Positions 10,054 through 42,342 of a stretch of 64,000 bases of DNA are shown here, piece by piece. Position 1 is the first letter of the stretch. Each line of letters begins with the position of its first letter. Origin of the DNA: Bacillota bacterium (GTDB taxonomy: Bacteria; Bacillota; Clostridia; Oscillospirales; Ruminococcaceae); assembly GCA_023429785.1 (NCBI GenBank), contig JAEZDD010000003.1, forward strand, positions 199,402 to 263,401, written 5' to 3'. Below the pieces are notes generated by a model, which was not told where the DNA came from, did no database searches, and saw only the letters and a list, made by a program, of their open reading frames with translations. A program made the position numbers and the translations under genes.

Positions 10054-10090
10054 CCAAAAAGCAAGCTGACAATTACAAAATCGTCAGCTT
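10054..10090 (-). terminator. Intrinsic terminator ending the aro-DUF4364 transcription unit
   Basis: Minus strand AAGCTGAC-12 nt loop-GTCAGCTT followed by GCTTTTTGG. Confidence 0.7.
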
Positions 10091-10104
10091 ATCAGCAAAT
10101 ATTT

Positions 10105-10683
10105 TTAAGTTATATCCGGTATATACTCTTCATTTTCAAGCGCATAATCAAGAACCTTCCCGTAAAAATCAATCGGGTTTTTAAGAATTTTTTCTTTTAT
10201 CAGCTTTGCCTGCTCCAAGTCGGGCGCAAAAAGCTGCAAATTCATCAGAATTATATCATTATCCTTACAGCTGCACTCAATTGCATAGCCTTTTTTAACC
10301 TCGAAAATTTCGCAAATGACGTCCTGTTCAAGCTTTAGCTTCGCAAAAAGCTTCATCCCGGTTACCAAAATTTTATCTCTGAAGGATTTCGGGACAATAG
10401 TCTTAAAAGAATCTGCCCCTTCCTTCCCCATTTCAGACAAAATATAGTACTCCACGCCTTCAATGCTCTCAATTTTGATTGTTCCCGCTTCAAGCATTGC
10501 GGTTATCGCTTCTGTATAGTTAAAATAGTTCACAATGCCGCCAGAGGTTGCAATTTCAGTGAGCTGGTTCGGTGTAACAGGTCGGTTAATCTGATTCAAA
10601 AAAAAGCATATAAGAATTTTCACAGCATAAGAGTCTTTTAGCGAAAGCATCTGCGGGGTTATGAATTTTTCAAAGCTGTCCAT
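10105..10683 (-). CDS. DUF4364-family protein (putative winged-helix regulator-like)
   Basis: About 192 aa, resembling clostridial DUF4364 proteins as I recall them. The AGGAGG RBS overlaps the aroC stop. The track starts the ORF at TTG 10686. Confidence 0.65.
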   Translation of the reverse strand: MDSFEKFITPQMLSLKDSYAVKILICFFLNQINRPVTPNQLTEIATSGGIVNYFNYTEAITAMLEAGTIKIESIEGVEYYILSEMGKEGADSFKTIVPKSFRDKILVTGMKLFAKLKLEQDVICEIFEVKKGYAIECSCKDNDIILMNLQLFAPDLEQAKLIKEKILKNPIDFYGKVLDYALENEEYIPDIT

Positions 10684-10692
10684 CAAGACCTC

Positions 10693-11784
10693 CTAGAAAT
10701 TTGGGTAATTAAGCATATTTGAAAGCAAGGCAATGTTCACAGCCGCCTCAACGCAAGGGACAGCTCGCGGAACAACACAAGGGTCGTGTCTCCCCTTAAT
10801 ATTAATTATATCATTTTTCATCGAGCTATAATCAATAGTTTCCTGAGGCTGAGCGATTGACGGAGTAGGCTTGAATGCAACCTTCAAGGTTATCGGCATT
10901 CCCGAAGAAATTCCACCCAAAATACCCCCGTGGTAATTCGTTTTTGTGAGAACATGACCGTGCTCATCAACATAAAACTCGTCGTTGTTTTCGCTTCCGA
11001 GCATTTTTGAGCAATTAAAGCCGGCACCAAATTCCAAGCCTTTTACAGCCGGAATTCCAAAAATCAGCGAAGCAATATTATTCTCAAGCCCGTCAAAAAT
11101 AGGCGAACCAATACCAGCCGGAACATTAATTGAACAGCATTCAACAACACCGCCGAGAGAATCAAGAACCTCCCTCGCCTTTTCAATATCGCGAATCATC
11201 TGCTCGCCCTTTTTATCGTTTATTACAGGGAAATCCTTTTTTCTAAGCGAAATTATTTCTTCTCTGGTAACGGAGGTTACATTAAAAGGGGTGTCATTTA
11301 TGTTATGTATTGATGAAATATGCGCCCCGGTATATATCCCACGTCTTTCAAGAATTTGTGCACAAACAGCGCCGGCAAAAACAAGCGGAGCAGTCAGTCG
11401 CCCTGAAAAATGCCCGCCGCCACGAACGTCATTAAAGCCCTTATATCTTATTGCGCCGGTATAATCTGCGTGACCAGGGCGAGCCAGCTTTGAAATATTT
11501 GAATAATCCTGAGAGTGAGTGTCTTCATTAGGAATAAAAGCGCACAAGGGTGTCCCCGTTGTTTTGTTGTTAAGAAGCCCTGACATAATCTGAGGCATAT
11601 CTTTTTCACGGCGCTGGGTCGAAGTCTTATCCTTTTTCGGGGCACGTCTAGCCAAAAATGCCATTACTTCATCTAGGTTGACATATTCACCAGCCGGCAG
11701 CTTATCAATTACAACACCAATCGCGGGGCCGTGAGATTCGCCAAAAATAGATACGCTGAGGTTATTATTCCATATTGATGACAT
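10693..11784 (-). CDS. aroC: Chorismate synthase
   Basis: The track ORF runs to 11844. The likely start is MSSIWNNNLSVSIFGESHGPAIG at 11784 with a GGAGGAG RBS. Motifs include RPGHADYTG, GGGHFSGR and GRHDPCVVPRA. Confidence 0.93.
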   Translation of the reverse strand: MSSIWNNNLSVSIFGESHGPAIGVVIDKLPAGEYVNLDEVMAFLARRAPKKDKTSTQRREKDMPQIMSGLLNNKTTGTPLCAFIPNEDTHSQDYSNISKLARPGHADYTGAIRYKGFNDVRGGGHFSGRLTAPLVFAGAVCAQILERRGIYTGAHISSIHNINDTPFNVTSVTREEIISLRKKDFPVINDKKGEQMIRDIEKAREVLDSLGGVVECCSINVPAGIGSPIFDGLENNIASLIFGIPAVKGLEFGAGFNCSKMLGSENNDEFYVDEHGHVLTKTNYHGGILGGISSGMPITLKVAFKPTPSIAQPQETIDYSSMKNDIINIKGRHDPCVVPRAVPCVEAAVNIALLSNMLNYPNF

Positions 11785-13012
11785 TAAATTCTCCTCCAAG
11801 CTTTTTGTAATCCTCGAAAAAATTCGGGTATGATTTCTCAACACATTTTGCGTTTAAAATTGTCAAGGGCTTTGTGCATCTTGTAGCCGCAATCGCCATT
11901 GACATAGCAATCCTGTGGTCGTTAAAGCTGTCAACAGTTCCGCCATTAAAGGACTTCACACCGGTAATAATTAACTTGTCCGCTTCTGCTATAACATTCC
12001 CGCCAATCTCGTTGATACATTTTGATATTGAAGCAAGCCTGTCGCTTTCCTTAATCCTGAGTCGGGCAACATTGAAAATCTCAGAGGTTCCCTCGCAGAA
12101 GGACGCTAAAACTGTCAGAATCGGAACAATGTCAGGGATATCAGAAGCATCAATCTTAAATGGCTTTAACAAATTTGTATTTTTATTATAACCTATTGAG
12201 GAAATAATTTCAATGATTTTCTTGTCCCCTTGGAAACTTTGCTCAAAAATATTCAAAATTTGTATATTATTACCAATAGCGCTAGCCACATAGAAGAATG
12301 CTGCCTGTGAAAAATCGCCCTCGACGCTTGTGTCACATGGCTTGTACACTTGATTCCCTTTAATAAAATATCCATTTTCATTTTCGACAATTTCAACGCC
12401 GAATTTACTTAAACAGTCAATTGTTATGTCAACATAAGGCTTAGATTGGAGCTTTGAGGTGAGAATTATTTGTGAATTACCATTTAAAAGCGGAAGAGCG
12501 AACAATAATCCCGTGATGAACTGGGAGCTTATCCCGCCGTCGATGATGAACTCACCCGCCGATAATCCCCCGCTCACGGAAAAAGGCATTGTGTTGTTGT
12601 AATTAAAGGTCACGCCGTTTTTTGTTAATTCTAACAGGTATGGTGTGATTGGTCTTTCGGGGAGCTTCCCCTCACCAAAAAACTCGGTATTTATCCCGAG
12701 TGCCGTAACAATAGGAATTATAAACCGAAGTGTTGAGCCTGACTCATTACAGTTTATTTTTGCTGTGCTATTAACAATATCAATACCGTTAATTGTGGCA
12801 ACATCAGCATTTATATTTATTTTTGCGCCTATTGCCTCAAGAGCCGAAATCGTCGCAATAATATCCTTTGAGAGTGAAATATTGCTCACCCTTGAGGTTC
12901 CCTTTGCGAGAGCTGAACAAATTAACAGCCTGTGCGCCTGACTTTTTGACGGCGGAGCGATGACACTGCCCTTTAAAAGCTTTGGTGTGATTTCAACGTT
13001 ATACATTTTCAA
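11765..13012 (-). CDS. aroA: 3-phosphoshikimate 1-carboxyvinyltransferase (EPSP synthase)
   Basis: 415 aa with PPSKSQAHR, LNCNESGSTLRF, KESDRLA and DHRIAMS motifs. Confidence 0.95.
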   Translation of the reverse strand: MKMYNVEITPKLLKGSVIAPPSKSQAHRLLICSALAKGTSRVSNISLSKDIIATISALEAIGAKININADVATINGIDIVNSTAKINCNESGSTLRFIIPIVTALGINTEFFGEGKLPERPITPYLLELTKNGVTFNYNNTMPFSVSGGLSAGEFIIDGGISSQFITGLLFALPLLNGNSQIILTSKLQSKPYVDITIDCLSKFGVEIVENENGYFIKGNQVYKPCDTSVEGDFSQAAFFYVASAIGNNIQILNIFEQSFQGDKKIIEIISSIGYNKNTNLLKPFKIDASDIPDIVPILTVLASFCEGTSEIFNVARLRIKESDRLASISKCINEIGGNVIAEADKLIITGVKSFNGGTVDSFNDHRIAMSMAIAATRCTKPLTILNAKCVEKSYPNFFEDYKKLGGEFNVINME

Positions 13013-14057
13013 CCTCCATAAGCTTATAAAAATCCTTGATTGAAAGCTTTATGATTTCGCTTTTCCCGATATCATCGCAAACAATTATGTTTATGTTTTC
13101 GCTCTCGCGCTTTTTATCGTTTAGACAATAGCCAATCAGCTTTGAAACAGGGATGTCTGTCTTTGTCGGAAGTCCGTATTTTTCAAGGCATTTTATTAGG
13201 ACTTCAGTTGTCCCTTTTTTGGTTAGCTTAGCCTTTTCAGTGTAATCGGACATAATGCACATCCCTATAGCCACAGCCTGACCGTGAGAAATCCCGTCGA
13301 AGTTATAATGCTTTTCAATTGCGTGTCCTATTGTGTGCCCGAAATTCAAGAGCATTCTCTCCCCTTTGTCGAACTCATCAGCCTCGACAACGGATTTTTT
13401 TATATTGATACATTCGACTATAACCTGTTCTAAATTCATGTCAGCTGGATTTTCAGCTAGAGTGTTGAAAAGACTTTCGCTTCTTATCATTCCGTATTTG
13501 ATTATTTCAGCCATTCCGTCAGAAAAAATCTCTTTTGAAAGGGTTTTGATTGTTGATAAATCGCATATTACGCATAAAGGCTGCTTGAACGCGCCGACGA
13601 GGTTCTTCCCGTTTGAAATGTTCACTGCCGTTTTCCCGCCGATTGCTGAGTCGGTTTGCGCTAAAAGTGTGGTTGGAATTTGTACCACATCCATGCCGCG
13701 AAGGTATGTAGCGGCGGCGAAGCCCGTCAGGTCGCCGACTACCCCGCCACCGAGCGCAATAATAAGGTCGGAACGAGTTATCCTCATATCTGTTAAAAAT
13801 TCATAAAGCTTTATCAATACTTCATGCGATTTGCTTTTTTCGCCGTTTTGAAATACAAATGTTTCAGCTGATATATTCGACATTTTTAATGAATTTATAA
13901 CCCTTTCTGAATACAGCGCCCCGACAATATTATCTGTAACAATTACTGCCCTTTTCGACCTTGAAACCTTTGATATGATTTCGCCAGTTTTTTCAAGCAA
14001 GCCCTCTCCAACCATAATTTCGTATTTTGTCATTGCGTTCATTGTGATTGTCTGCAT
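12999..14057 (-). CDS. aroB: 3-dehydroquinate synthase
   Basis: 352 aa with GGGVVGDLTGFAAATYLRG, LLAQTDSAIGGKT and NFGHTIGHAIE motifs. Confidence 0.93.
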   Translation of the reverse strand: MQTITMNAMTKYEIMVGEGLLEKTGEIISKVSRSKRAVIVTDNIVGALYSERVINSLKMSNISAETFVFQNGEKSKSHEVLIKLYEFLTDMRITRSDLIIALGGGVVGDLTGFAAATYLRGMDVVQIPTTLLAQTDSAIGGKTAVNISNGKNLVGAFKQPLCVICDLSTIKTLSKEIFSDGMAEIIKYGMIRSESLFNTLAENPADMNLEQVIVECINIKKSVVEADEFDKGERMLLNFGHTIGHAIEKHYNFDGISHGQAVAIGMCIMSDYTEKAKLTKKGTTEVLIKCLEKYGLPTKTDIPVSKLIGYCLNDKKRESENINIIVCDDIGKSEIIKLSIKDFYKLMEVENV

Positions 14058-14078
14058 AATATTTTTCCCTTTCGAGTT

Positions 14079-15095
14079 TTATTGACAAAGCTTTTTCCCT
14101 GAGAATTCTGCCTGTGCCTTAATCTTTTTCATTACATCGGAAAATTGTGCCGGTGTGAGAGATTGTGCCCCGTCTGAAAGCGCATTTTTAGGGTCGTTGT
14201 GGACTTCAATTATGAGAGCGTCAGCTCCGCACACTATTGAAGCGAGCGAAAGCGGCTCAACGAGTGAGGTCAGCCCTGTCGCATGGCTCGGGTCAACAAC
14301 AATAGGTAGGTGTGAAAGCTGTTTTAAAAGCGGAACCGCTGATATATCAAGTGTGTTTCTTGTTTTTGGCTCAAAGGTTCTTATCCCTCTTTCGCAAAGG
14401 ATTATATTCTGGTTGCCCCCTGCCGAAATATATTCAGCCGACATCAAAAGCTCCTCAAGTGTATTCGCAAGCCCTCTTTTTAAAAGAATTGGCTTATTGC
14501 TGTGACCTAGCTCCTTGAGCATTTCAAAATTCTGCATATTTCTTGCACCAACTTGAATTATATCAACGTCAGAAAATAAGTCGAGGTGAGAAAGGCTCAT
14601 AATTTCAGTAACAATAGGAAGTCCGGTTATCTTTTTCGCTTGCAGCAAAAGCTCTATTCCGTCAGCACGAAGCCCCTGAAAGGCATATGGCGAGGTCCTC
14701 GGCTTGAATGCGCCGCCACGAAGCATCGTCGCACCGGCTTCCTTCACAGCAATAGCCGTCGTAATAATTTGCTCCTCGCTTTCGACTGAACAAGGTCCGG
14801 CGATGACATTAAGTGTTCCGCCGCCGATTTGCTTTCCGTCAACATTAATTATTGTATCATCAGGGTGAAATTTTCGGTTTGTATTTTTAAACGGCTCCTG
14901 AATACGCTGAACATTTTCAACAATTTCCTTAGCTTTTACATTTTCAATATCAATTTTTGAGGTGTCGCCGATTAAACCCAGAATGGTCTTTTGTGTTCCG
15001 TTTACAACGTTCACCTTAACGTCGAAATTATTTAACCAGTTCACCATTTCGTCTAGCTGTGCCGGGGTTGCATTTTGTTTTAAAATTACAATCAT
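14079..15095 (-). CDS. aroF: 3-deoxy-7-phosphoheptulonate (DAHP) synthase, type I-beta, with an N-terminal ferredoxin-like regulatory domain
   Basis: The track ORF runs to 15110. The likely start is MIVILKQ at 15095, with GGAGG 8 nt upstream. The N-terminal domain of about 70 aa is followed by the catalytic barrel (IAGPCSVES, GGAFKPRTSPY, DPSH). Confidence 0.93.
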   Translation of the reverse strand: MIVILKQNATPAQLDEMVNWLNNFDVKVNVVNGTQKTILGLIGDTSKIDIENVKAKEIVENVQRIQEPFKNTNRKFHPDDTIINVDGKQIGGGTLNVIAGPCSVESEEQIITTAIAVKEAGATMLRGGAFKPRTSPYAFQGLRADGIELLLQAKKITGLPIVTEIMSLSHLDLFSDVDIIQVGARNMQNFEMLKELGHSNKPILLKRGLANTLEELLMSAEYISAGGNQNIILCERGIRTFEPKTRNTLDISAVPLLKQLSHLPIVVDPSHATGLTSLVEPLSLASIVCGADALIIEVHNDPKNALSDGAQSLTPAQFSDVMKKIKAQAEFSGKKLCQ

Positions 15096-15160
15096 TTCAT
15101 TAACCTCCATATTTTATTTTGAACTTGTCGTGTAACCGTGCACAATTACAGAAAATGCAA

Positions 15161-15198
15161 ATAAAAAAGTTCGTAGCTTTTTTTAAAAGCTACGAACT
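15161..15198 (-). terminator. Strong intrinsic terminator between the leader ORF and aroF (candidate attenuator terminator; also ends pcrA readthrough)
   Basis: Minus strand AGTTCGTAGCTTTT-AAA-AAAAGCTACGAACT followed by TTTTTATTT. It ends about 50 nt upstream of the aroF RBS. Confidence 0.8.
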
Positions 15199-15221
15199 AT
15201 TACAAGCATATAAAGGATATA

Positions 15222-15335
15222 TTATCCAACTAAACTTGCCGTTGTAGCTTTCCCATATCTAAAAAACTCGAAGCCAAAATAAAAGCTCAAGCTAAAAAAG
15301 TATGTAAAGCTAAATGCAAGTGAAAGTATTAGCAT
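15222..15335 (-). CDS. Candidate Phe/Tyr-rich leader peptide (37 aa) of the aro operon
   Basis: Hand translation: MLILSLAFSFTYFFSLSFYFGFEFFRYGKATTASLVG*. RBS AAAGGGA lies 8 nt upstream. Too short for the ORF track. It sits between a consensus promoter and the terminator. Confidence 0.5.
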   Translation of the reverse strand: MLILSLAFSFTYFFSLSFYFGFEFFRYGKATTASLVG

Positions 15336-15365
15336 AATGTTTTCCCTTTCAAATTCTTTAAAGTA

Positions 15366-15394
15366 AATATACGCTAATTTAATCATTTTGTCAA
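15366..15394 (-). promoter_or_regulatory. Near-consensus sigma-A promoter driving the leader ORF and aro operon
   Basis: Minus strand TTGACA (15394-15389), a 17-nt spacer, then TATATT (15371-15366). Confidence 0.65.
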
Positions 15395-15461
15395 TACTTT
15401 TTCTAAATATTTGTATAAATCAACAAAATATACTTCATGCTAAAATTACTAAGCATTCTTA

Positions 15462-17816
15462 TTATATTTTTTTGATTTTTGCGAAGTTCGCCATTATCTT
15501 TTTTGTTCCCTTTGTGTCAAAGGCGACCTCAAGCATTGTATCATTTGACATTTTTGTTGAAACCAAAACTGTCCCCTCGCCAAAAATATTATGAGAAACT
15601 CTATCCCCGGCTGAAAAATCAATATTATTAGTAGTATGTTTTTCCGCCTTCTTTTTGTTGGCGAGCTGAGCCTGTAAGGAAATATTCGTCGGGGCGGTAA
15701 TTCCGTTATCGGAAAAGCCGTTTGACCTCTGAATTTGCTGTTGCTGGTGATTTAAGTAATCGGTTGGAAGCTCCTTAATGAACCTCGAAGGACGATTTCT
15801 GTTTGTATTTCCAAAAAGCATACGCTCAACCGAATGAGTCAGGTGAAGATTTTGCTTCGCTCTTGTGATAGCAACATATGCAAGGCGTCTTTCTTCCTCA
15901 ATATCCGCTTCACTATCCATGCTCCTCGCGCTCGGGAATATATTTTCTTCCATCCCGACAACAAAAACGTTCGGGAATTCAAGCCCTTTAGCCGCGTGCA
16001 TCGTCATCATGACAACATAATCAGCGTTTTCGTCAAGCTGGTCTATATCAGTATAAAGTGCAACCTCCTCTAAAAAGCCTGAAAGTGACGGCTCCTCCGC
16101 TTCTTCAGAATATTTCACCATAGAGGTTTTAAGCTCGTTGATGTTTTCAAGGCGCATTACGCCCTCGTCACCAAGCTCTTTCATATACTTACCATAGCCT
16201 GTTTTGACCAGCAAAATGTCAAGAAGCTCGTTAAGTGGCTTCTCACTGGCAATTTCAGTCAGATTGTCAATCATTTCAGCAAATTCAGTGAGCGATTTTG
16301 ATTTTTTAACGAGAGGAGCATAGCTTGGAGACTCTCTTAAAACCTCGATGGGAGTAACCCCTAAGTCCGATGTGATTTGTTCAAACACCGTAATAGTAGC
16401 GGACCCGATGCCACGCTTCGGCTCATTGATTATTCTTTTTAGCCTTAGCATATCAGCCGGATTATTGATAACAGAAAGATAAGCAATCATATCCCTTATT
16501 TCTTTTCTGTCATAGAACTTTTGTCCGCCAAAAATCTTATATGGTATCCCGCTGGCAATTAAAGCACGTTCTATTGAATTTGACTGTGCATTCATTCTGT
16601 ATAAAACGGCGTTGTCATTATACCTCCCGCCATTTTTAATATGCTCTAAAATATTGTCAGCAATGTATTTCGCCTCACCCGATTCGTTAGCAGCCTTAAA
16701 GACAGTGACAAGACTCCCGTCGCCGCTTGAAGTCCAGAGGTTTTTCCCTTTTCTCCCCTGATTATTTTTAATCAGCTCATTAGCAACTGTAAGAATATTT
16801 TGTGTCGAACGATAATTCTGCTCAAGGCGGATTACCTTAGCGTTATCAAACTGTTCCTCAAAAGAGAGGATATTCTCGATTGTTGCACCTCTGAATTTAT
16901 AAATACTCTGGTCATCATCCCCGACGACACATAGATTCTCATGCTTTGAGGATAACATGCAGACCAGCTTATACTGAACCTGATTTGTGTCCTGATATTC
17001 GTCAACAAGAACATATTTATACAAATTCTGATAATGGCTCAATACGTCCGGGCATTCTTCAAAAAGTCTGACAGTCAGATTAATAATATCGTCAAAGTCA
17101 ACGGCATTGGCGGCGAAAAGCTTCTGCTGATAAAGCTTATATATTTTTGCAATAACCAGCTTTCTGTAATCGCCCGAGGCTGAAGCCTCATACATTTTCG
17201 GCGTAATCATAAAATCCTTCTGTCGGCTGATTTCACCTTGAATTGATTTCGGCGGGAACATTTTCTCGGCAACCTCAAGCTCCTCAAGACAGGATTTTAT
17301 TACCCTTTGAGTATCATCTGAGTCATATATCGTGAAGCTGGATTTATATCCGATTCTCTCAATCTCTCGTCTGAGTATTCGAGCGCACGTTGAATGAAAG
17401 GTCGCCGCCATTATGCCTTGTGATTTTTCGCCAAGCATTTTTTCAAGTCTGTCCTTTAATTCCCCAGCCGCTTTGTTTGTAAAAGTGATTGCTAATATAT
17501 TCCATGGATTGACACATTCCGTTGAAATAACATCCTTTAATCTTTCGCTGTCGCTTTCCTCCCCGTCTGCATATCCCTTTAAAAACTCTATATCTTCAGC
17601 TGAAAAGTTGTTTCTTGTGCAATTATAAGCATCGCCGAAATAAACCATATTAGCAATTCTGTTAACTAATACTGTTGTCTTTCCGCTTCCGGCCCCGGCT
17701 AAAATTAGAAGTGGGCCTTTTATTGTTAAAACAGCTTCCAATTGATTTTCATTCATTCTTGTGAAATATTTTCTTAAAGCATTTCTTTTTAAAGCTTGAA
17801 TATCAATATTACTCAT
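15462..17816 (-). CDS. pcrA: ATP-dependent DNA helicase PcrA (UvrD family, SF1A)
   Basis: 784 aa with AGAGSGKTTVL (Walker A), VLVDEYQDTN, VGDDDQSIYKFRGA, and a C-terminal Tudor-like tail. Confidence 0.93.
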   Translation of the reverse strand: MSNIDIQALKRNALRKYFTRMNENQLEAVLTIKGPLLILAGAGSGKTTVLVNRIANMVYFGDAYNCTRNNFSAEDIEFLKGYADGEESDSERLKDVISTECVNPWNILAITFTNKAAGELKDRLEKMLGEKSQGIMAATFHSTCARILRREIERIGYKSSFTIYDSDDTQRVIKSCLEELEVAEKMFPPKSIQGEISRQKDFMITPKMYEASASGDYRKLVIAKIYKLYQQKLFAANAVDFDDIINLTVRLFEECPDVLSHYQNLYKYVLVDEYQDTNQVQYKLVCMLSSKHENLCVVGDDDQSIYKFRGATIENILSFEEQFDNAKVIRLEQNYRSTQNILTVANELIKNNQGRKGKNLWTSSGDGSLVTVFKAANESGEAKYIADNILEHIKNGGRYNDNAVLYRMNAQSNSIERALIASGIPYKIFGGQKFYDRKEIRDMIAYLSVINNPADMLRLKRIINEPKRGIGSATITVFEQITSDLGVTPIEVLRESPSYAPLVKKSKSLTEFAEMIDNLTEIASEKPLNELLDILLVKTGYGKYMKELGDEGVMRLENINELKTSMVKYSEEAEEPSLSGFLEEVALYTDIDQLDENADYVVMMTMHAAKGLEFPNVFVVGMEENIFPSARSMDSEADIEEERRLAYVAITRAKQNLHLTHSVERMLFGNTNRNRPSRFIKELPTDYLNHQQQQIQRSNGFSDNGITAPTNISLQAQLANKKKAEKHTTNNIDFSAGDRVSHNIFGEGTVLVSTKMSNDTMLEVAFDTKGTKKIMANFAKIKKI

Positions 17817-19403: not shown

Positions 19404-20270
19404 TTAGCCTTTAACGCTACCCAATGCTATACCACGAACGATATACTTAGATAGAAATAAGTATACTAGTGCAACAGGAATAATAGAAACAAATATTAAT
19501 CCATAAACTTGACCTAAATCAAATTTAGCAAAATCCGCACTTCTTAGCATGGCAATAAGAATAGGTAATGTCTTCATGTCCTTCTTGTCAAGAATAAGAG
19601 CTGGTATAAAGTAGTTGTTCCATGCCCCTGTAAAAGCAAATATCGCCTGAACAGCAATAGCTGGCTTCAATATTGGAAATACAATTCTGTTGAAGGTATA
19701 AAATTCATTTGAACCGTCAATTCTAGCAGCCTCGATTATTTCAAGAGGCAATGCACTCTCCATATACTGTTTCATAAAGAAGAATATAATTGGTGAAGCA
19801 ATTGCTGGAATAATAAGTGGAATGAATGAGTTTAATAAATCCATATCTCTAATCATGCTAACAAATCCCAATGCAGAAACCTGGGTTGGAACAATCATAA
19901 TCATTAGAATAAATGCAAAAATTGCATTTTTGAATTTAAAGGTATATGCATGAATTCCATAAGCTGTCATCGCCGAGAAGTATGTAGCTAATGCAGCTAC
20001 ACCAGCTGAAACAATAAAGCTGTTAAAAATACCTGTCAATACCGGAAGAGTATCATTTGAGAAAACGCTCTTCATATTAACTAAAAAAGATTTTCCTGGT
20101 AATAGAGAAAAGCCTTTTGCGATGTCTGGATGAGCTCTGGTTGTATTTATAATCAGAATATAAAAAGCAGCCAAAGATAAGACGGATAACAAAATCAATA
20201 CAAAATAACAAAATATTCTATAAATTGTTAGCCCTGCATTTCCAACGCTTGAGTTTTTTTGCATACTCAT
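19404..20270 (-). CDS. Carbohydrate ABC transporter permease (MalG-like)
   Basis: 288 aa with 6 TM helices and an EAA-like loop (EAARIDGSNEFYTFNRIVFPILKP). Confidence 0.9.
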   Translation of the reverse strand: MSMQKNSSVGNAGLTIYRIFCYFVLILLSVLSLAAFYILIINTTRAHPDIAKGFSLLPGKSFLVNMKSVFSNDTLPVLTGIFNSFIVSAGVAALATYFSAMTAYGIHAYTFKFKNAIFAFILMIMIVPTQVSALGFVSMIRDMDLLNSFIPLIIPAIASPIIFFFMKQYMESALPLEIIEAARIDGSNEFYTFNRIVFPILKPAIAVQAIFAFTGAWNNYFIPALILDKKDMKTLPILIAMLRSADFAKFDLGQVYGLIFVSIIPVALVYLFLSKYIVRGIALGSVKG

Positions 20271-21196
20271 TATCTTTGCCCCTTTCTATCCCTATTTGTA
20301 AATCCAAAGAAAACAATTAAGCTTAATATACCGGCAACAGCGAATAAAATTACACTGAGTGCACCAGCCATACCATAGTTTTTGCTATATAGATGGTTGT
20401 TCAAGAACATAATAAGCGTCATGCTTGTACGGTTAGGAACACCTAAGCCATTTGTTAGAATTTGTGGAACGTCAAACATCTGAAGTCCACCAATTAATGA
20501 AGTTAAAATAACATATAATAAAATAGGTCTTAATAGAGGTAGAGTTATCTTTCTAAACGCTTGTGATGATGAAGCACCATCAATTTCAGCTGCCTCATAT
20601 AGCTGTGTATCAATACCCATTATGCCAGCCATTAATAATATTGTAGTATTTCCATACCACATCAAAAAGTTCATAAGCGCAACTAATCCACGGTTTCCTT
20701 CTGTTGATGCCATAATCTGAACAGTGTCAGAAGAGTGAGTGATACTCTTGATCATATCACTAATAGGACCAATATCAGAGAAAATTGACCAGAAAAGCAT
20801 TGAAAAAGCAGCAGCCATTATTAAGTTTGGCATATAGATTATAGTCTTAAATACTCCTGTAGCTTTTAGCTTCAATCTTATATTTGTGAACCAAGAGGCA
20901 AGTATAAGTGAAACTACTATTTGAGGTATAAAACCTAAAAGCCACATAATCATTGTGTTAGAGAAATAAGTTACTAATGAATTATCAGTAAATAATGTCT
21001 TGAAATTTTGAATTCCTATATAATTAGGACCAACTGTATCTAAACCAACTTGGTAATTTTCAAAAAAACTATTATAAAACGTCGAAATTAGCGGCACTAA
21101 GCTGAAAATAGCATAAACTATAAAAAATGGTAAAATAAAAAATACTCCCCATTTGCCATAACTTATAATATTTTTATTATTTTTTAATTTTGACAT
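20270..21196 (-). CDS. Carbohydrate ABC transporter permease (MalF-like)
   Basis: 308 aa with an EAA loop (EAAEIDGASSSQAFRKITLPLLRP). Overlaps the downstream permease start by 1 nt. Confidence 0.9.
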   Translation of the reverse strand: MSKLKNNKNIISYGKWGVFFILPFFIVYAIFSLVPLISTFYNSFFENYQVGLDTVGPNYIGIQNFKTLFTDNSLVTYFSNTMIMWLLGFIPQIVVSLILASWFTNIRLKLKATGVFKTIIYMPNLIMAAAFSMLFWSIFSDIGPISDMIKSITHSSDTVQIMASTEGNRGLVALMNFLMWYGNTTILLMAGIMGIDTQLYEAAEIDGASSSQAFRKITLPLLRPILLYVILTSLIGGLQMFDVPQILTNGLGVPNRTSMTLIMFLNNHLYSKNYGMAGALSVILFAVAGILSLIVFFGFTNRDRKGQR

Positions 21197-41612: not shown

Positions 41613-41689
41613 TGGTCGGAGTAGTGAGACTCGAACTCACGGCATCTAACTCCCGAAGCTAGCACTCTACCAAACTGAGTTATACCCCG
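41613..41689 (-). tRNA. tRNA-Pro (anticodon CGG), CCA encoded
   Basis: Hand-folded cloverleaf: acceptor CGGGGTA/TACTCCG, D arm ACTC..GAGT, anticodon stem CTAGC/GTTAG with loop TTCGGGA, T arm GTGAG-TTCGAGT-CTCAC, discriminator A plus CCA. Confidence 0.9.
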
Positions 41690-42171: not shown

Positions 42172-42342
42172 CTATTAACGGAATTTTGGCGGTTTGGCCC
42201 TGTTCAATCCGAGATATAGGTGTGCGGGTCCTGTGCAATGAAACACTGTGAATCATGTCAGGCGGGGAACCGAGCAGCATTAAGCGGAACGTTTTGTGTG
42301 CCGCAGATTGCCTGCATGCCTATATGTCGGATTGATTTTTTT
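42172..42342 (+). ncRNA. ffs: Signal recognition particle RNA (4.5S/scRNA-like)
   Basis: GTCAGGCGGGGAACCGAGCAGC...GTGTGCCGCAG...GCCTGC matches the conserved domain IV of E. coli 4.5S RNA (GUCAGGUCCGGAAGGAAGCAGC...GUGUGCCGG). A 17-bp closing helix (42204-42220 with 42319-42335) is followed by a T7 run. The ffs-dnaX-ebfC-recR synteny is the same as in Bacillus. The ends are approximate. Confidence 0.7.

Follow-up and report, generated by a model that had tools for sequence, protein, structure and literature searches.

A predicted aromatic leader-peptide attenuator upstream of the aroF operon in a Ruminococcaceae genome and in related Clostridia

What controls transcription of the aroF-aroB-aroA-aroC operon, which serves the common pathway by which aromatic amino acids are made, in a Ruminococcaceae bacterium (Bacillota; Clostridia; Oscillospirales)? 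The operon is located on the minus strand of a stretch of 64,000 nucleotides (assembly GCA_023429785.1, contig JAEZDD010000003.1, positions 199,402 to 263,401), referred to here as the window, and is preceded by a short leader situated between pcrA and aroF. An earlier interpretation of the window, made without database searches and termed here the sequence-only reading, had proposed that this leader is a four-segment attenuator, in which a ribosome translating a small open reading frame (ORF) rich in Phe and Tyr codons governs the choice between termination and read-through. The present analysis makes it very probable that the leader is a ribosome-mediated (leader-peptide) transcription attenuator of the operon, sensing charged tRNA-Phe and tRNA-Tyr and, in most relatives, tRNA-Trp as well. 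The four-segment interpretation is supported by conservation of the leader at 63 of 80 related loci, in combination with cognate-specific complementarity in the 1:2 and 2:3 pairings and compensatory changes.

All four elements named by the sequence-only reading, namely a promoter, a Shine-Dalgarno (SD) sequence, the ORF and a terminator, are present on the minus strand where it had placed them:

15366 to 15394, minus strand: sigma-A-type promoter with the -35 box TTGACA (15394-15389), a spacer of 17 nucleotides and the -10 box TATATT (15371-15366).
15343 to 15349, minus strand: SD sequence AAAGGGA of the leader, 7 nucleotides upstream of ATG 15335.
15222 to 15335, minus strand: leader ORF of 37 codons, from ATG 15335 to TAA 15224-15222, with the product MLILSLAFSFTYFFSLSFYFGFEFFRYGKATTASLVG.
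15159 to 15198, minus strand: intrinsic terminator (attenuator), AGUUCGUAGCUUUU-AAA-AAAAGCUACGAACU and then UUUUUUAUUU.

With 11 of 12 matches, the promoter ranks among the best promoter-like sites of the 10.5 kb scanned, and transcription would start near 15359. The encoded peptide MLILSLAFSFTYFFSLSFYFGFEFFRYGKATTASLVG contains 9 Phe and 3 Tyr, and all 12 aromatic residues lie within residues 8-27. A version of the ORF with 54 codons (ATG 15386) was rejected, since its ATG falls into the promoter spacer and would precede the point where transcription is inferred to start. The terminator hairpin (15198-15168) consists of a 14-bp stem and a 3-nucleotide loop, is followed by TTTTTTATTT and has a folding energy of -15.8 kcal/mol. 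It is positioned about 50 nucleotides ahead of the SD sequence of aroF (GGAGG, 15108-15104), and the promoter scan detected no promoter-like site between the terminator and aroF, as the sequence-only reading had stated. Folding of the 266-nucleotide leader, compared with shuffled sequences, gave z = -5.2.

Taken on its own, the single sequence makes a weak case beyond chance. Within the AT-rich window, 3 of 622 small ATG-started ORFs display at least 7 aromatic residues in 12. Two other small ORFs of this density on the minus strand overlap larger genes and were therefore set aside as products of chance in AT-rich sequence: the one at 18161-17949 is antisense to the N-terminus of an AI-2E transporter gene, and the one at 21152-21072 lies inside the ORF 20270-21196. 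The significance of the aromatic ORF therefore derives from its conservation in relatives and not from the window alone.

For this comparison, 80 loci with AroF proteins 65-87% identical to that of the window were collected by an AroF genome scan. The set spans Oscillospiraceae, Ruminococcus, Hominimerdicola, Ruminiclostridium-type and other Clostridia, and includes metagenome-assembled genomes (MAGs) as well as isolates. At 63 of the 80 loci an SD sequence, a start codon, an ORF rich in Phe, Tyr and Trp codons and a terminator are found upstream of aroF, so that the aromatic run recognized by the sequence-only reading in one sequence recurs as a homologous feature of the family. The start codon is ATG in 62 of these leaders and GTG in one (L079), and in nearly all related leaders it is preceded by an SD-like AGGA, GGAG or GGGA. 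The related ORFs, for example MYSVISSAVFTYFFFAFSFFFGFRFFWRVKKAALRLGE, MKTQKSYFYFYFNSRF and MFANFYYGFYFYYGKRD, have a median length of 37 codons, with 7 Phe, 3 Tyr and 1 Trp. Each of the 63 leader-bearing loci possesses the terminator, which shows many compensatory changes and ends 22-240 nucleotides (mostly 25-90) before aroF, while the distance between the leader stop codon and the 5' arm of the terminator is mostly 17-58 nucleotides.

A TTGACA-17-TAnnnT promoter, located 24-67 nucleotides before the leader ATG, is present at 59 of the 63 loci, with a perfect -35 box in all but one, whereas control stretches of the same length inside aroF contain none (0/63). The promoter is unusually invariant, even where AroF is only about 65% identical to that of the window. 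The aromatic-rich ORFs themselves are also tightly localized. Across 457 kb of related loci 57 small ORFs are rich in aromatic residues, and 50 of them are located on the strand of aroF within the 450 nucleotides upstream of it, a zone which makes up 4% of the strand-bases searched; of the remaining seven, two represent this leader at a position further upstream. Neither leader ORF nor terminator was found at ten loci (L028, L041, L042, L048, L050, L051, L061, L062, L067 and L073), the majority of those lacking the ORF, which presumably use another mode of aroF regulation; at several of them the upstream region is more GC-rich.

Two arrangements among the relatives are of separate note. The MAG OH_HBrB_48 carries two aroF paralogues (L003 and L037), each with its own distinct leader and terminator, MLILAAVFAFTYFFSLNYFWFGFNCRVKASTAG and MKSASKKVNANHIFFYCTGYYPSASFSAEK. 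In the lineage of L085-L088 (3001-5072) and L044 (1227-2337) a gene for an S-adenosylmethionine (SAM)-dependent methyltransferase is inserted between leader and terminator on one side and aroF on the other, and here the attenuator heads a methyltransferase-aroF-aroB operon.

Is the ORF maintained as a translated sequence, and is its aromatic content under selection? In an alignment of 22 leaders calculated with MAFFT (A1), the start codon is aligned in 21 sequences, L016 being misaligned at this position, and insertions or deletions in the conserved core comprise only 3 or 6 nucleotides. The 60 unique leader peptides consist of 19% Phe, 7.2% Tyr and 1.6% Trp (28% together), compared with 2.7%, 1.1% and 0.4% in AroF (4% together). 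Both Phe and Tyr occur in all 60 of them and Trp in 33. In the aromatic columns synonymous codons vary (TTT/TTC, TAT/TAC), and replacements are almost exclusively aromatic (Phe to Tyr, Phe to Trp, Tyr to Phe) and not Leu, Ile or Val. Since GC-rich relatives keep the run (SSFYYYFSFTF in L052, with 58% GC upstream, and YAFYFGFTFY in L060), U-richness is not its cause. In distant relatives, e.g. MKTQKSYFYFYFNSRF, only the aromatic run and the terminator are preserved and the RNA sequence is different. A difference within the family concerns Trp: at codon 26 of the alignment, right after the U-tract described below, 15 of the 22 relatives have a single TGG followed by CGT, whereas the window displays AGA-TAT (Arg-Tyr; 15260-15255, minus strand). 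The leader of the window has no Trp codon and therefore would not sense Trp.

The second part of the question is whether the RNA can adopt alternative structures which would connect translation of the ORF to termination. The following segments are relevant:

15303 to 15332, minus strand: segment 1, comprising codons 2-11 in the 5' part of the ORF, with CUUGCA and UAGCUUU; it represents the anti-antiterminator strand.
15233 to 15254, minus strand: segment 2, comprising codons 28-35 in the 3' part of the ORF, GGGAAAGCUACAAC GGCAAGU; its partner is either segment 1 or the 5' arm of the terminator.
15185 to 15254, minus strand: antiterminator, formed by segment 2 and the terminator 5' arm together with an inner GCAAGU:GCUUGU helix, and enclosing the leader stop codon.
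15261 to 15293, minus strand: P1 hairpin and U6 tract, AGCUUGAGC / GCUUCGAGUU, with a loop encoding Phe-Tyr-Phe; the U6 tract encodes Phe-Phe.

Segment 1 contains the codons F8 and F10 and adjoins Y12-F14. The minimum-energy fold of the full-length leader (-53.9 kcal/mol) comprises a 1:2 stem, P1 at the apex of this stem (15293-15265) and the terminator. In the 1:2 stem, CUUGCA/UAGCUUU (15320-15306) is paired with AAAGCUA...GGCAAG (15251-15235). If the RNA ends before the 3' arm of the terminator, 15251-15241 pairs with 15197-15186 instead, giving rise to the antiterminator hairpin with -21.2 kcal/mol and z = -3.7 relative to shuffles. Thus both the antiterminator and the 1:2 pairing claimed by the sequence-only reading are recovered by folding, and they are mutually exclusive, as are antiterminator and terminator. 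The terminator 5' arm forms its best duplex at codons 28-34, both in the window and in close relatives, and the same extended antiterminator hairpin is found in most of the FTYFF subgroup, with z-scores mostly between -2 and -5.

Because the region between ORF and terminator aligns poorly in MAFFT, pairing was tested for each sequence individually, using 46 loci with distinct terminator arms. Cognate 1:2 duplexes reach a mean of -16.7 kcal/mol versus -11.2 kcal/mol for non-cognate combinations (permutation p<=1e-4), the duplex of the window having -15.7 kcal/mol. Likewise, duplexes between segment 2 and the terminator 5' arm (2:3) have a mean of -9.9 kcal/mol when cognate and -7.7 kcal/mol when not (permutation p<=1e-4). 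Segment 1 combined with the terminator 5' arm, which served as negative control, displays no cognate preference (p=0.42). The alignment of 22 leaders points in the same direction. In the 2:3 helix both sides change in 9 of 10 pairs, a value reached by none of 500 shuffles, and 70% of the cells can pair, compared with 38-50% when the partner is slid; for the 1:2 helix the values are 75% and 38-53%, respectively. The covariation that the sequence-only reading had proposed as a check is observed for the 2:3 helix, and for the terminator (3:4) in the form of the compensatory changes noted above. Three examples illustrate how the segments change together, each given as segment 1 / segment 2 / terminator 5' arm: UAGCUUU / AAAGCUA / GUAGCUUU in the window, AGUCUUU / AAAGACU / GUAGUCUUU in L011 and CGCAGUCU / GACUGCG / CGCAGUC in L019.

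These observations suggest the following mechanism. A strong constitutive promoter would direct synthesis of a leader of about 200 nucleotides, which encodes the 37-residue peptide with its 12 aromatic codons. The sensor codons would include F8 and F10 in the 3' end of segment 1, Y12-F14, F18-Y19-F20 in the P1 loop and F24-F25 in the U-tract, thereby extending up to just before segment 2. If aromatic aminoacyl-tRNAs are plentiful, the ribosome would reach the stop codon, which is situated inside the antiterminator hairpin; segment 2 would then be occluded or recaptured by segment 1, the 14-bp terminator could form and transcription would end about 65 nucleotides before the aroF start codon. 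If Phe or Tyr is scarce, the ribosome would stall in codons 8-25, either covering segment 1 or standing between segments 1 and 2, and the free segment 2 could pair with the emerging 5' arm of the terminator, allowing RNA polymerase to read through into aroF. Absence of translation would lead to the 1:2 helix and the terminator, which would represent the default off state. The elements, their conservation and the exclusive pairings are observed; from them we infer the starvation response, the ribosome positions, the kinetics and a pausing role of P1 and its U-tract. In folds of the RNA without the terminator 3' arm, masking by a ribosome at any of codons 8-25 yields the antiterminator in every case.

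Several points weigh against this mechanism. Transcription and translation are reported to be poorly coupled in Bacillus subtilis, which makes such a mechanism less obvious in Firmicutes. According to the masked folds, segment 2 would be covered if the ribosome stalled at Tyr27, the last of the aromatic codons. Furthermore, a ribosome positioned on the stop codon of the window's leader reaches to about 15 nucleotides past segment 2, and a simple mask at this position (codon 38) still gives the antiterminator; the off state therefore has to rely on steric exclusion of the ribosome from the 43-nucleotide loop or on re-formation of the 1:2 helix. In the shortened RNA the antiterminator is thermodynamically favoured even when no ribosome is present, and hence the kinetic order of folding must matter. 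Covariation of the 1:2 helix, as derived from the MAFFT alignment, is modest, with a conserved core helix that lacks changes on both sides. In the distant subgroups L004/5, L024-27 and L043-49 the duplex tests did not clearly identify a 2:3 partner; z-scores of the terminator-arm duplex are weak or misplaced in these subgroups and in L065/75, and the 2:3 pairing is not claimed for them. Finally, attenuator function in the window as well as in the relatives is a prediction from sequence and folding.

How could polymerase and ribosome be kept in step? RNAalifold, applied to the 22-leader alignment, recovered only two consensus helices, P1 and the terminator. P1 has -9.0 kcal/mol in the window and is directly followed by U6-7 in the subfamily to which the window belongs. 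It is not universal in the leader family: a hairpin followed by at least five U is present in 18 of 60 unique leaders, compared with 2% of shuffles. By analogy to the pause hairpin of the trp leader and to NusG-dependent pausing in the tlrB leader (PMC6851288), P1 is a candidate for a pause signal of RNA polymerase or for a weak terminator, which may hold the polymerase until the ribosome arrives. A more specific and rather tentative possibility is that P1 and the U6-7 tract (15293-15261) act as a programmed pause, dependent on NusA or NusG, or as an early terminator suppressed by translation. The U-tract would at the same time provide Phe-Phe sensor codons and the loop Phe-Tyr-Phe codons, so that the same bases would hold the polymerase and test the supply of aromatic tRNAs. 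If true, P1 and the U-tract would constitute a dedicated means of coping with the weak coupling of transcription and translation that has been reported for Firmicutes, and the leader family, which is abundant in gut Oscillospirales, would integrate Phe, Tyr and Trp supply for the common shikimate pathway.

Could the ORF instead be a gene in its own right? It might encode a hydrophobic membrane peptide or type I toxin, with aroF transcribed from its own promoter or by leaky read-through which is not regulated by aromatic amino acids. The peptide is indeed hydrophobic, the ORF has a promoter and a terminator of its own on either side, and public gene calls occasionally annotate the leader as a protein (17 clusters). 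However, when a profile built from 26 leader peptides was run against 5.8 billion proteins, only these 17 called homologues emerged, and no Pfam family matches the peptide. The three homologues examined, at 11 contig places, all have a DAHP synthase (3-deoxy-D-arabino-heptulosonate 7-phosphate synthase) gene downstream, and every context inspected directly heads a DAHP-synthase operon irrespective of the upstream neighbour, which is pcrA in the window and a glycosyltransferase, GntR or peptidase M16 gene elsewhere. An exact pattern of the P1 core matched metagenome contigs 42 times; in 39 cases aroF follows about 185 nucleotides downstream, two contigs are truncated and one is chimeric. Almost all of these matches stem from one species, a relative of Hominimerdicola aceti, and hence attest specificity with little diversity. 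In the human-gut metagenome contig L115 (12247-13309) the leader and the first ~17 AroF codons are fused to RecN-like sequence, probably by chimeric assembly or rearrangement. Occurrence of the peptide away from aro genes, which the sequence-only reading had named as evidence for a stand-alone peptide or toxin, was found neither in the inspected homologues nor among the P1-core matches. Moreover, a gene of this kind leaves aroF without a promoter-like site downstream of the terminator, would be expected to replace aromatic residues by Leu, Ile or Val as in a membrane helix, and does not need conserved, mutually exclusive helices between the 5' part of the ORF, its 3' part and the terminator. 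This explanation is accordingly very improbable.

A slightly stronger but still unlikely explanation is a switch that responds to an RNA-binding protein acting in trans, as with TRAP or PyrR, or to a small-molecule ligand, as in a riboswitch; the factor would act at the conserved region of P1 and segment 2, with the ORF being incidental or auxiliary. At the nucleotide level GUCUUUACAUAC, P1 and UGGCGUGUAAAGAAAGC are more conserved than codon counting requires, the co-transcribed DUF4364 gene is of unknown function, and, according to the sequence-only reading, TRAP and T-box control are usual for aromatic genes of Firmicutes. However, segment 1, P1 and segment 2 account for all conserved blocks, and the SD sequence and start codon, the frame-keeping indels and the exchange of aromatic for aromatic residues argue that translation is selected. 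The preservation of just the aromatic run and the terminator in distant relatives, at differing RNA sequence, also speaks against a protein or ligand. A cmscan of 14000-16500 against Rfam 15 (E<=10) gave no match, including riboswitches and T-box, in 15160-15400, no (G/U)AG repeat array was noticed, and at Rfam gathering thresholds no T-box or riboswitch is present in the whole window. The leader likewise has no covariance-model match to the Rfam leader families (Phe_leader, Trp_leader, His_leader etc.) or to T-box RF00230; the sequence-only reading had expected the T-box search to be negative. In a further interpretation the leader would be a general sensor of translation, of the erm or bmrCD type, in which any slowing of ribosomes by antibiotics or global starvation relieves termination, and richness in Phe and Tyr would arise as a side effect of the U-rich sequences of hairpin and pause. 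UUU codons do arise automatically in U-tracts and U-rich loops, and chance aromatic-rich ORFs occur in the AT-rich DNA of the window. U-richness, however, leaves unexplained that Tyr (UAU/UAC) and Trp (UGG) codons are enriched as well and swap with Phe at fixed positions, and it is at odds with the retained runs of the GC-rich leaders L052 and L060. In combination with the exclusive tie to the first committed gene of aromatic biosynthesis, this makes a general sensor hardly credible, and control by the supply of charged aromatic tRNAs is the preferred interpretation.

The leader stands at the head of the following arrangement:

10062 to 15095, minus strand: operon aroF-aroB-aroA-aroC-DUF4364, delimited by Pfam and a terminator scan.
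15095 to 14079, minus strand: aroF, starting with ATG 15095, DAHP synthase with an N-terminal ferredoxin-like domain (Pfam).
14057 to 12999, minus strand: aroB (Pfam).
ending at 11765, minus strand: aroA (Pfam).
ending at 10693, minus strand: aroC (Pfam).
10686 to 10105, minus strand: DUF4364 gene (Pfam), with which the operon closes, immediately ahead of its terminator.
10091 to 10062, minus strand: operon terminator (terminator scan).
15462 to 17816: pcrA (Pfam), the neighbour upstream of the leader.

At the Rfam gathering level the whole 64-kb window contains only a tRNA (41616-41689, minus strand) and a small signal recognition particle (SRP) RNA (42222-42320, plus strand). Below this level, RF03531 n00280, described as 'C. 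difficile sRNA included into helicase gene', matches 15826-15926 on the minus strand (39.6 bits versus a gathering threshold of 65.2, E=2e-4). This match falls within the coding sequence of pcrA, and conservation of the helicase-coding DNA most likely explains it.

For a large group of Clostridia from gut and rumen, among them Oscillospiraceae, the Ruminococcus albus group and Hominimerdicola, one would have expected T-box or TRAP to control the common aromatic pathway; an attenuator of this kind would fill in the regulatory logic that is missing there. With it, the few amino-acid leader-peptide attenuators of Firmicutes are joined by a large conserved family, which bears on the reach of ribosome-coupled attenuation in bacteria thought to uncouple transcription from translation. 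The natural variants, which differ in the ratio of Phe, Tyr and Trp, in the presence of the Trp codon and in the presence of the U-tract at P1, represent a ready covariation data set. For genome annotation, the small ORF should be labelled as leader peptide and not as hypothetical protein. Deletion of the attenuator would be an obvious route to derepression for engineering aromatic production in these anaerobes.

How new is the element? The sequence-only reading had regarded it as unusual and possibly undescribed. This view holds insofar as a literature search turned up no aromatic leader peptide described from Clostridia and no Rfam family covers the leader. It does not hold for the principle, since a leader of this kind has been tested in aroR, another has been predicted as uORFC-13-1, and His and Leu leaders are known in Firmicutes. 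The closest tested system is aroR of Corynebacterium glutamicum, an experimentally known Phe-Tyr-Phe leader peptide of aroF, whose operon is induced under Phe limitation (Mentz et al. 2013, PMC4046766; Neshat et al. 2014, cited through PMC11802643). With the present element aroR shares a ribosome-mediated attenuator before a DAHP-synthase gene and sensor codons for both Phe and Tyr, and its read-through rises under Phe limitation. In contrast to aroR, which is actinobacterial and has the Phe-Tyr-Phe triplet only, the leader of the window contains 12 aromatic codons, a comparison made by description and not by sequence. Clostridial leaders, unlike aroR, usually add a Trp codon, and the subfamily of the window has a hairpin with U-tract inside the ORF.

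The predicted motif uORFC-13-1 (Brewer et al. 2021, RNA Biol, PMC8632094) occurs exclusively upstream of aroF, directly before an intrinsic terminator, and comprises -35 and -10 boxes, a ribosome-binding site, a start codon, a run of U that codes for Phe and a further substructure with base pairing. Its 24 representatives are derived from Acholeplasma and unassigned environmental sequences; the authors noted 'at least one' Phe and offered neither an antiterminator model nor an experiment. This description is matched strikingly by the promoter, by P1 and its U-tract, by the terminator and by the location at aroF, the likeness being one of description and not of alignment. The present element differs in originating from Clostridia, and Rfam 15 yields no match for the leader of the window.

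Among the classical attenuators, E. coli pheL (the pheA leader), the pheST leader and trpL have in common with the present leader sensor codons in or after segment 1, alternative 1:2, 2:3 and 3:4 helices and a pause hairpin synchronising ribosome and polymerase. However, these are proteobacterial, respond to a single amino acid and control terminal-branch genes or a synthetase, whereas the common pathway is controlled here, and the Rfam models of such leaders do not match. Within the Firmicutes, His leaders are known from the Bacillus cereus group, C. difficile and Erysipelotrichales (PMC2965389, PMC9413887), and S. aureus possesses a Leu-rich ilv-leu attenuator peptide (PMC5794164). These belong to the same phylum and mechanism class and show that leader-peptide sensing coexists with T-box control, but they serve other amino acids and operons, none of them in aromatic biosynthesis. 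In the B. subtilis tlrB (yxjB) leader, NusG-dependent pausing synchronises RNA polymerase and ribosome, and a stalled ribosome prevents termination (PMC6851288). With its leader peptide and pause hairpin, tlrB provides a model for the proposed role of P1 and the U-tract, where pausing is presumed, although it senses an antibiotic via an arrest motif and not the charging of tRNA. In conclusion, the element is a real and well-supported leader-peptide attenuator of the aroF kind, the principle of which is already known, and belongs to a Clostridial family that is widespread and appears uncatalogued.

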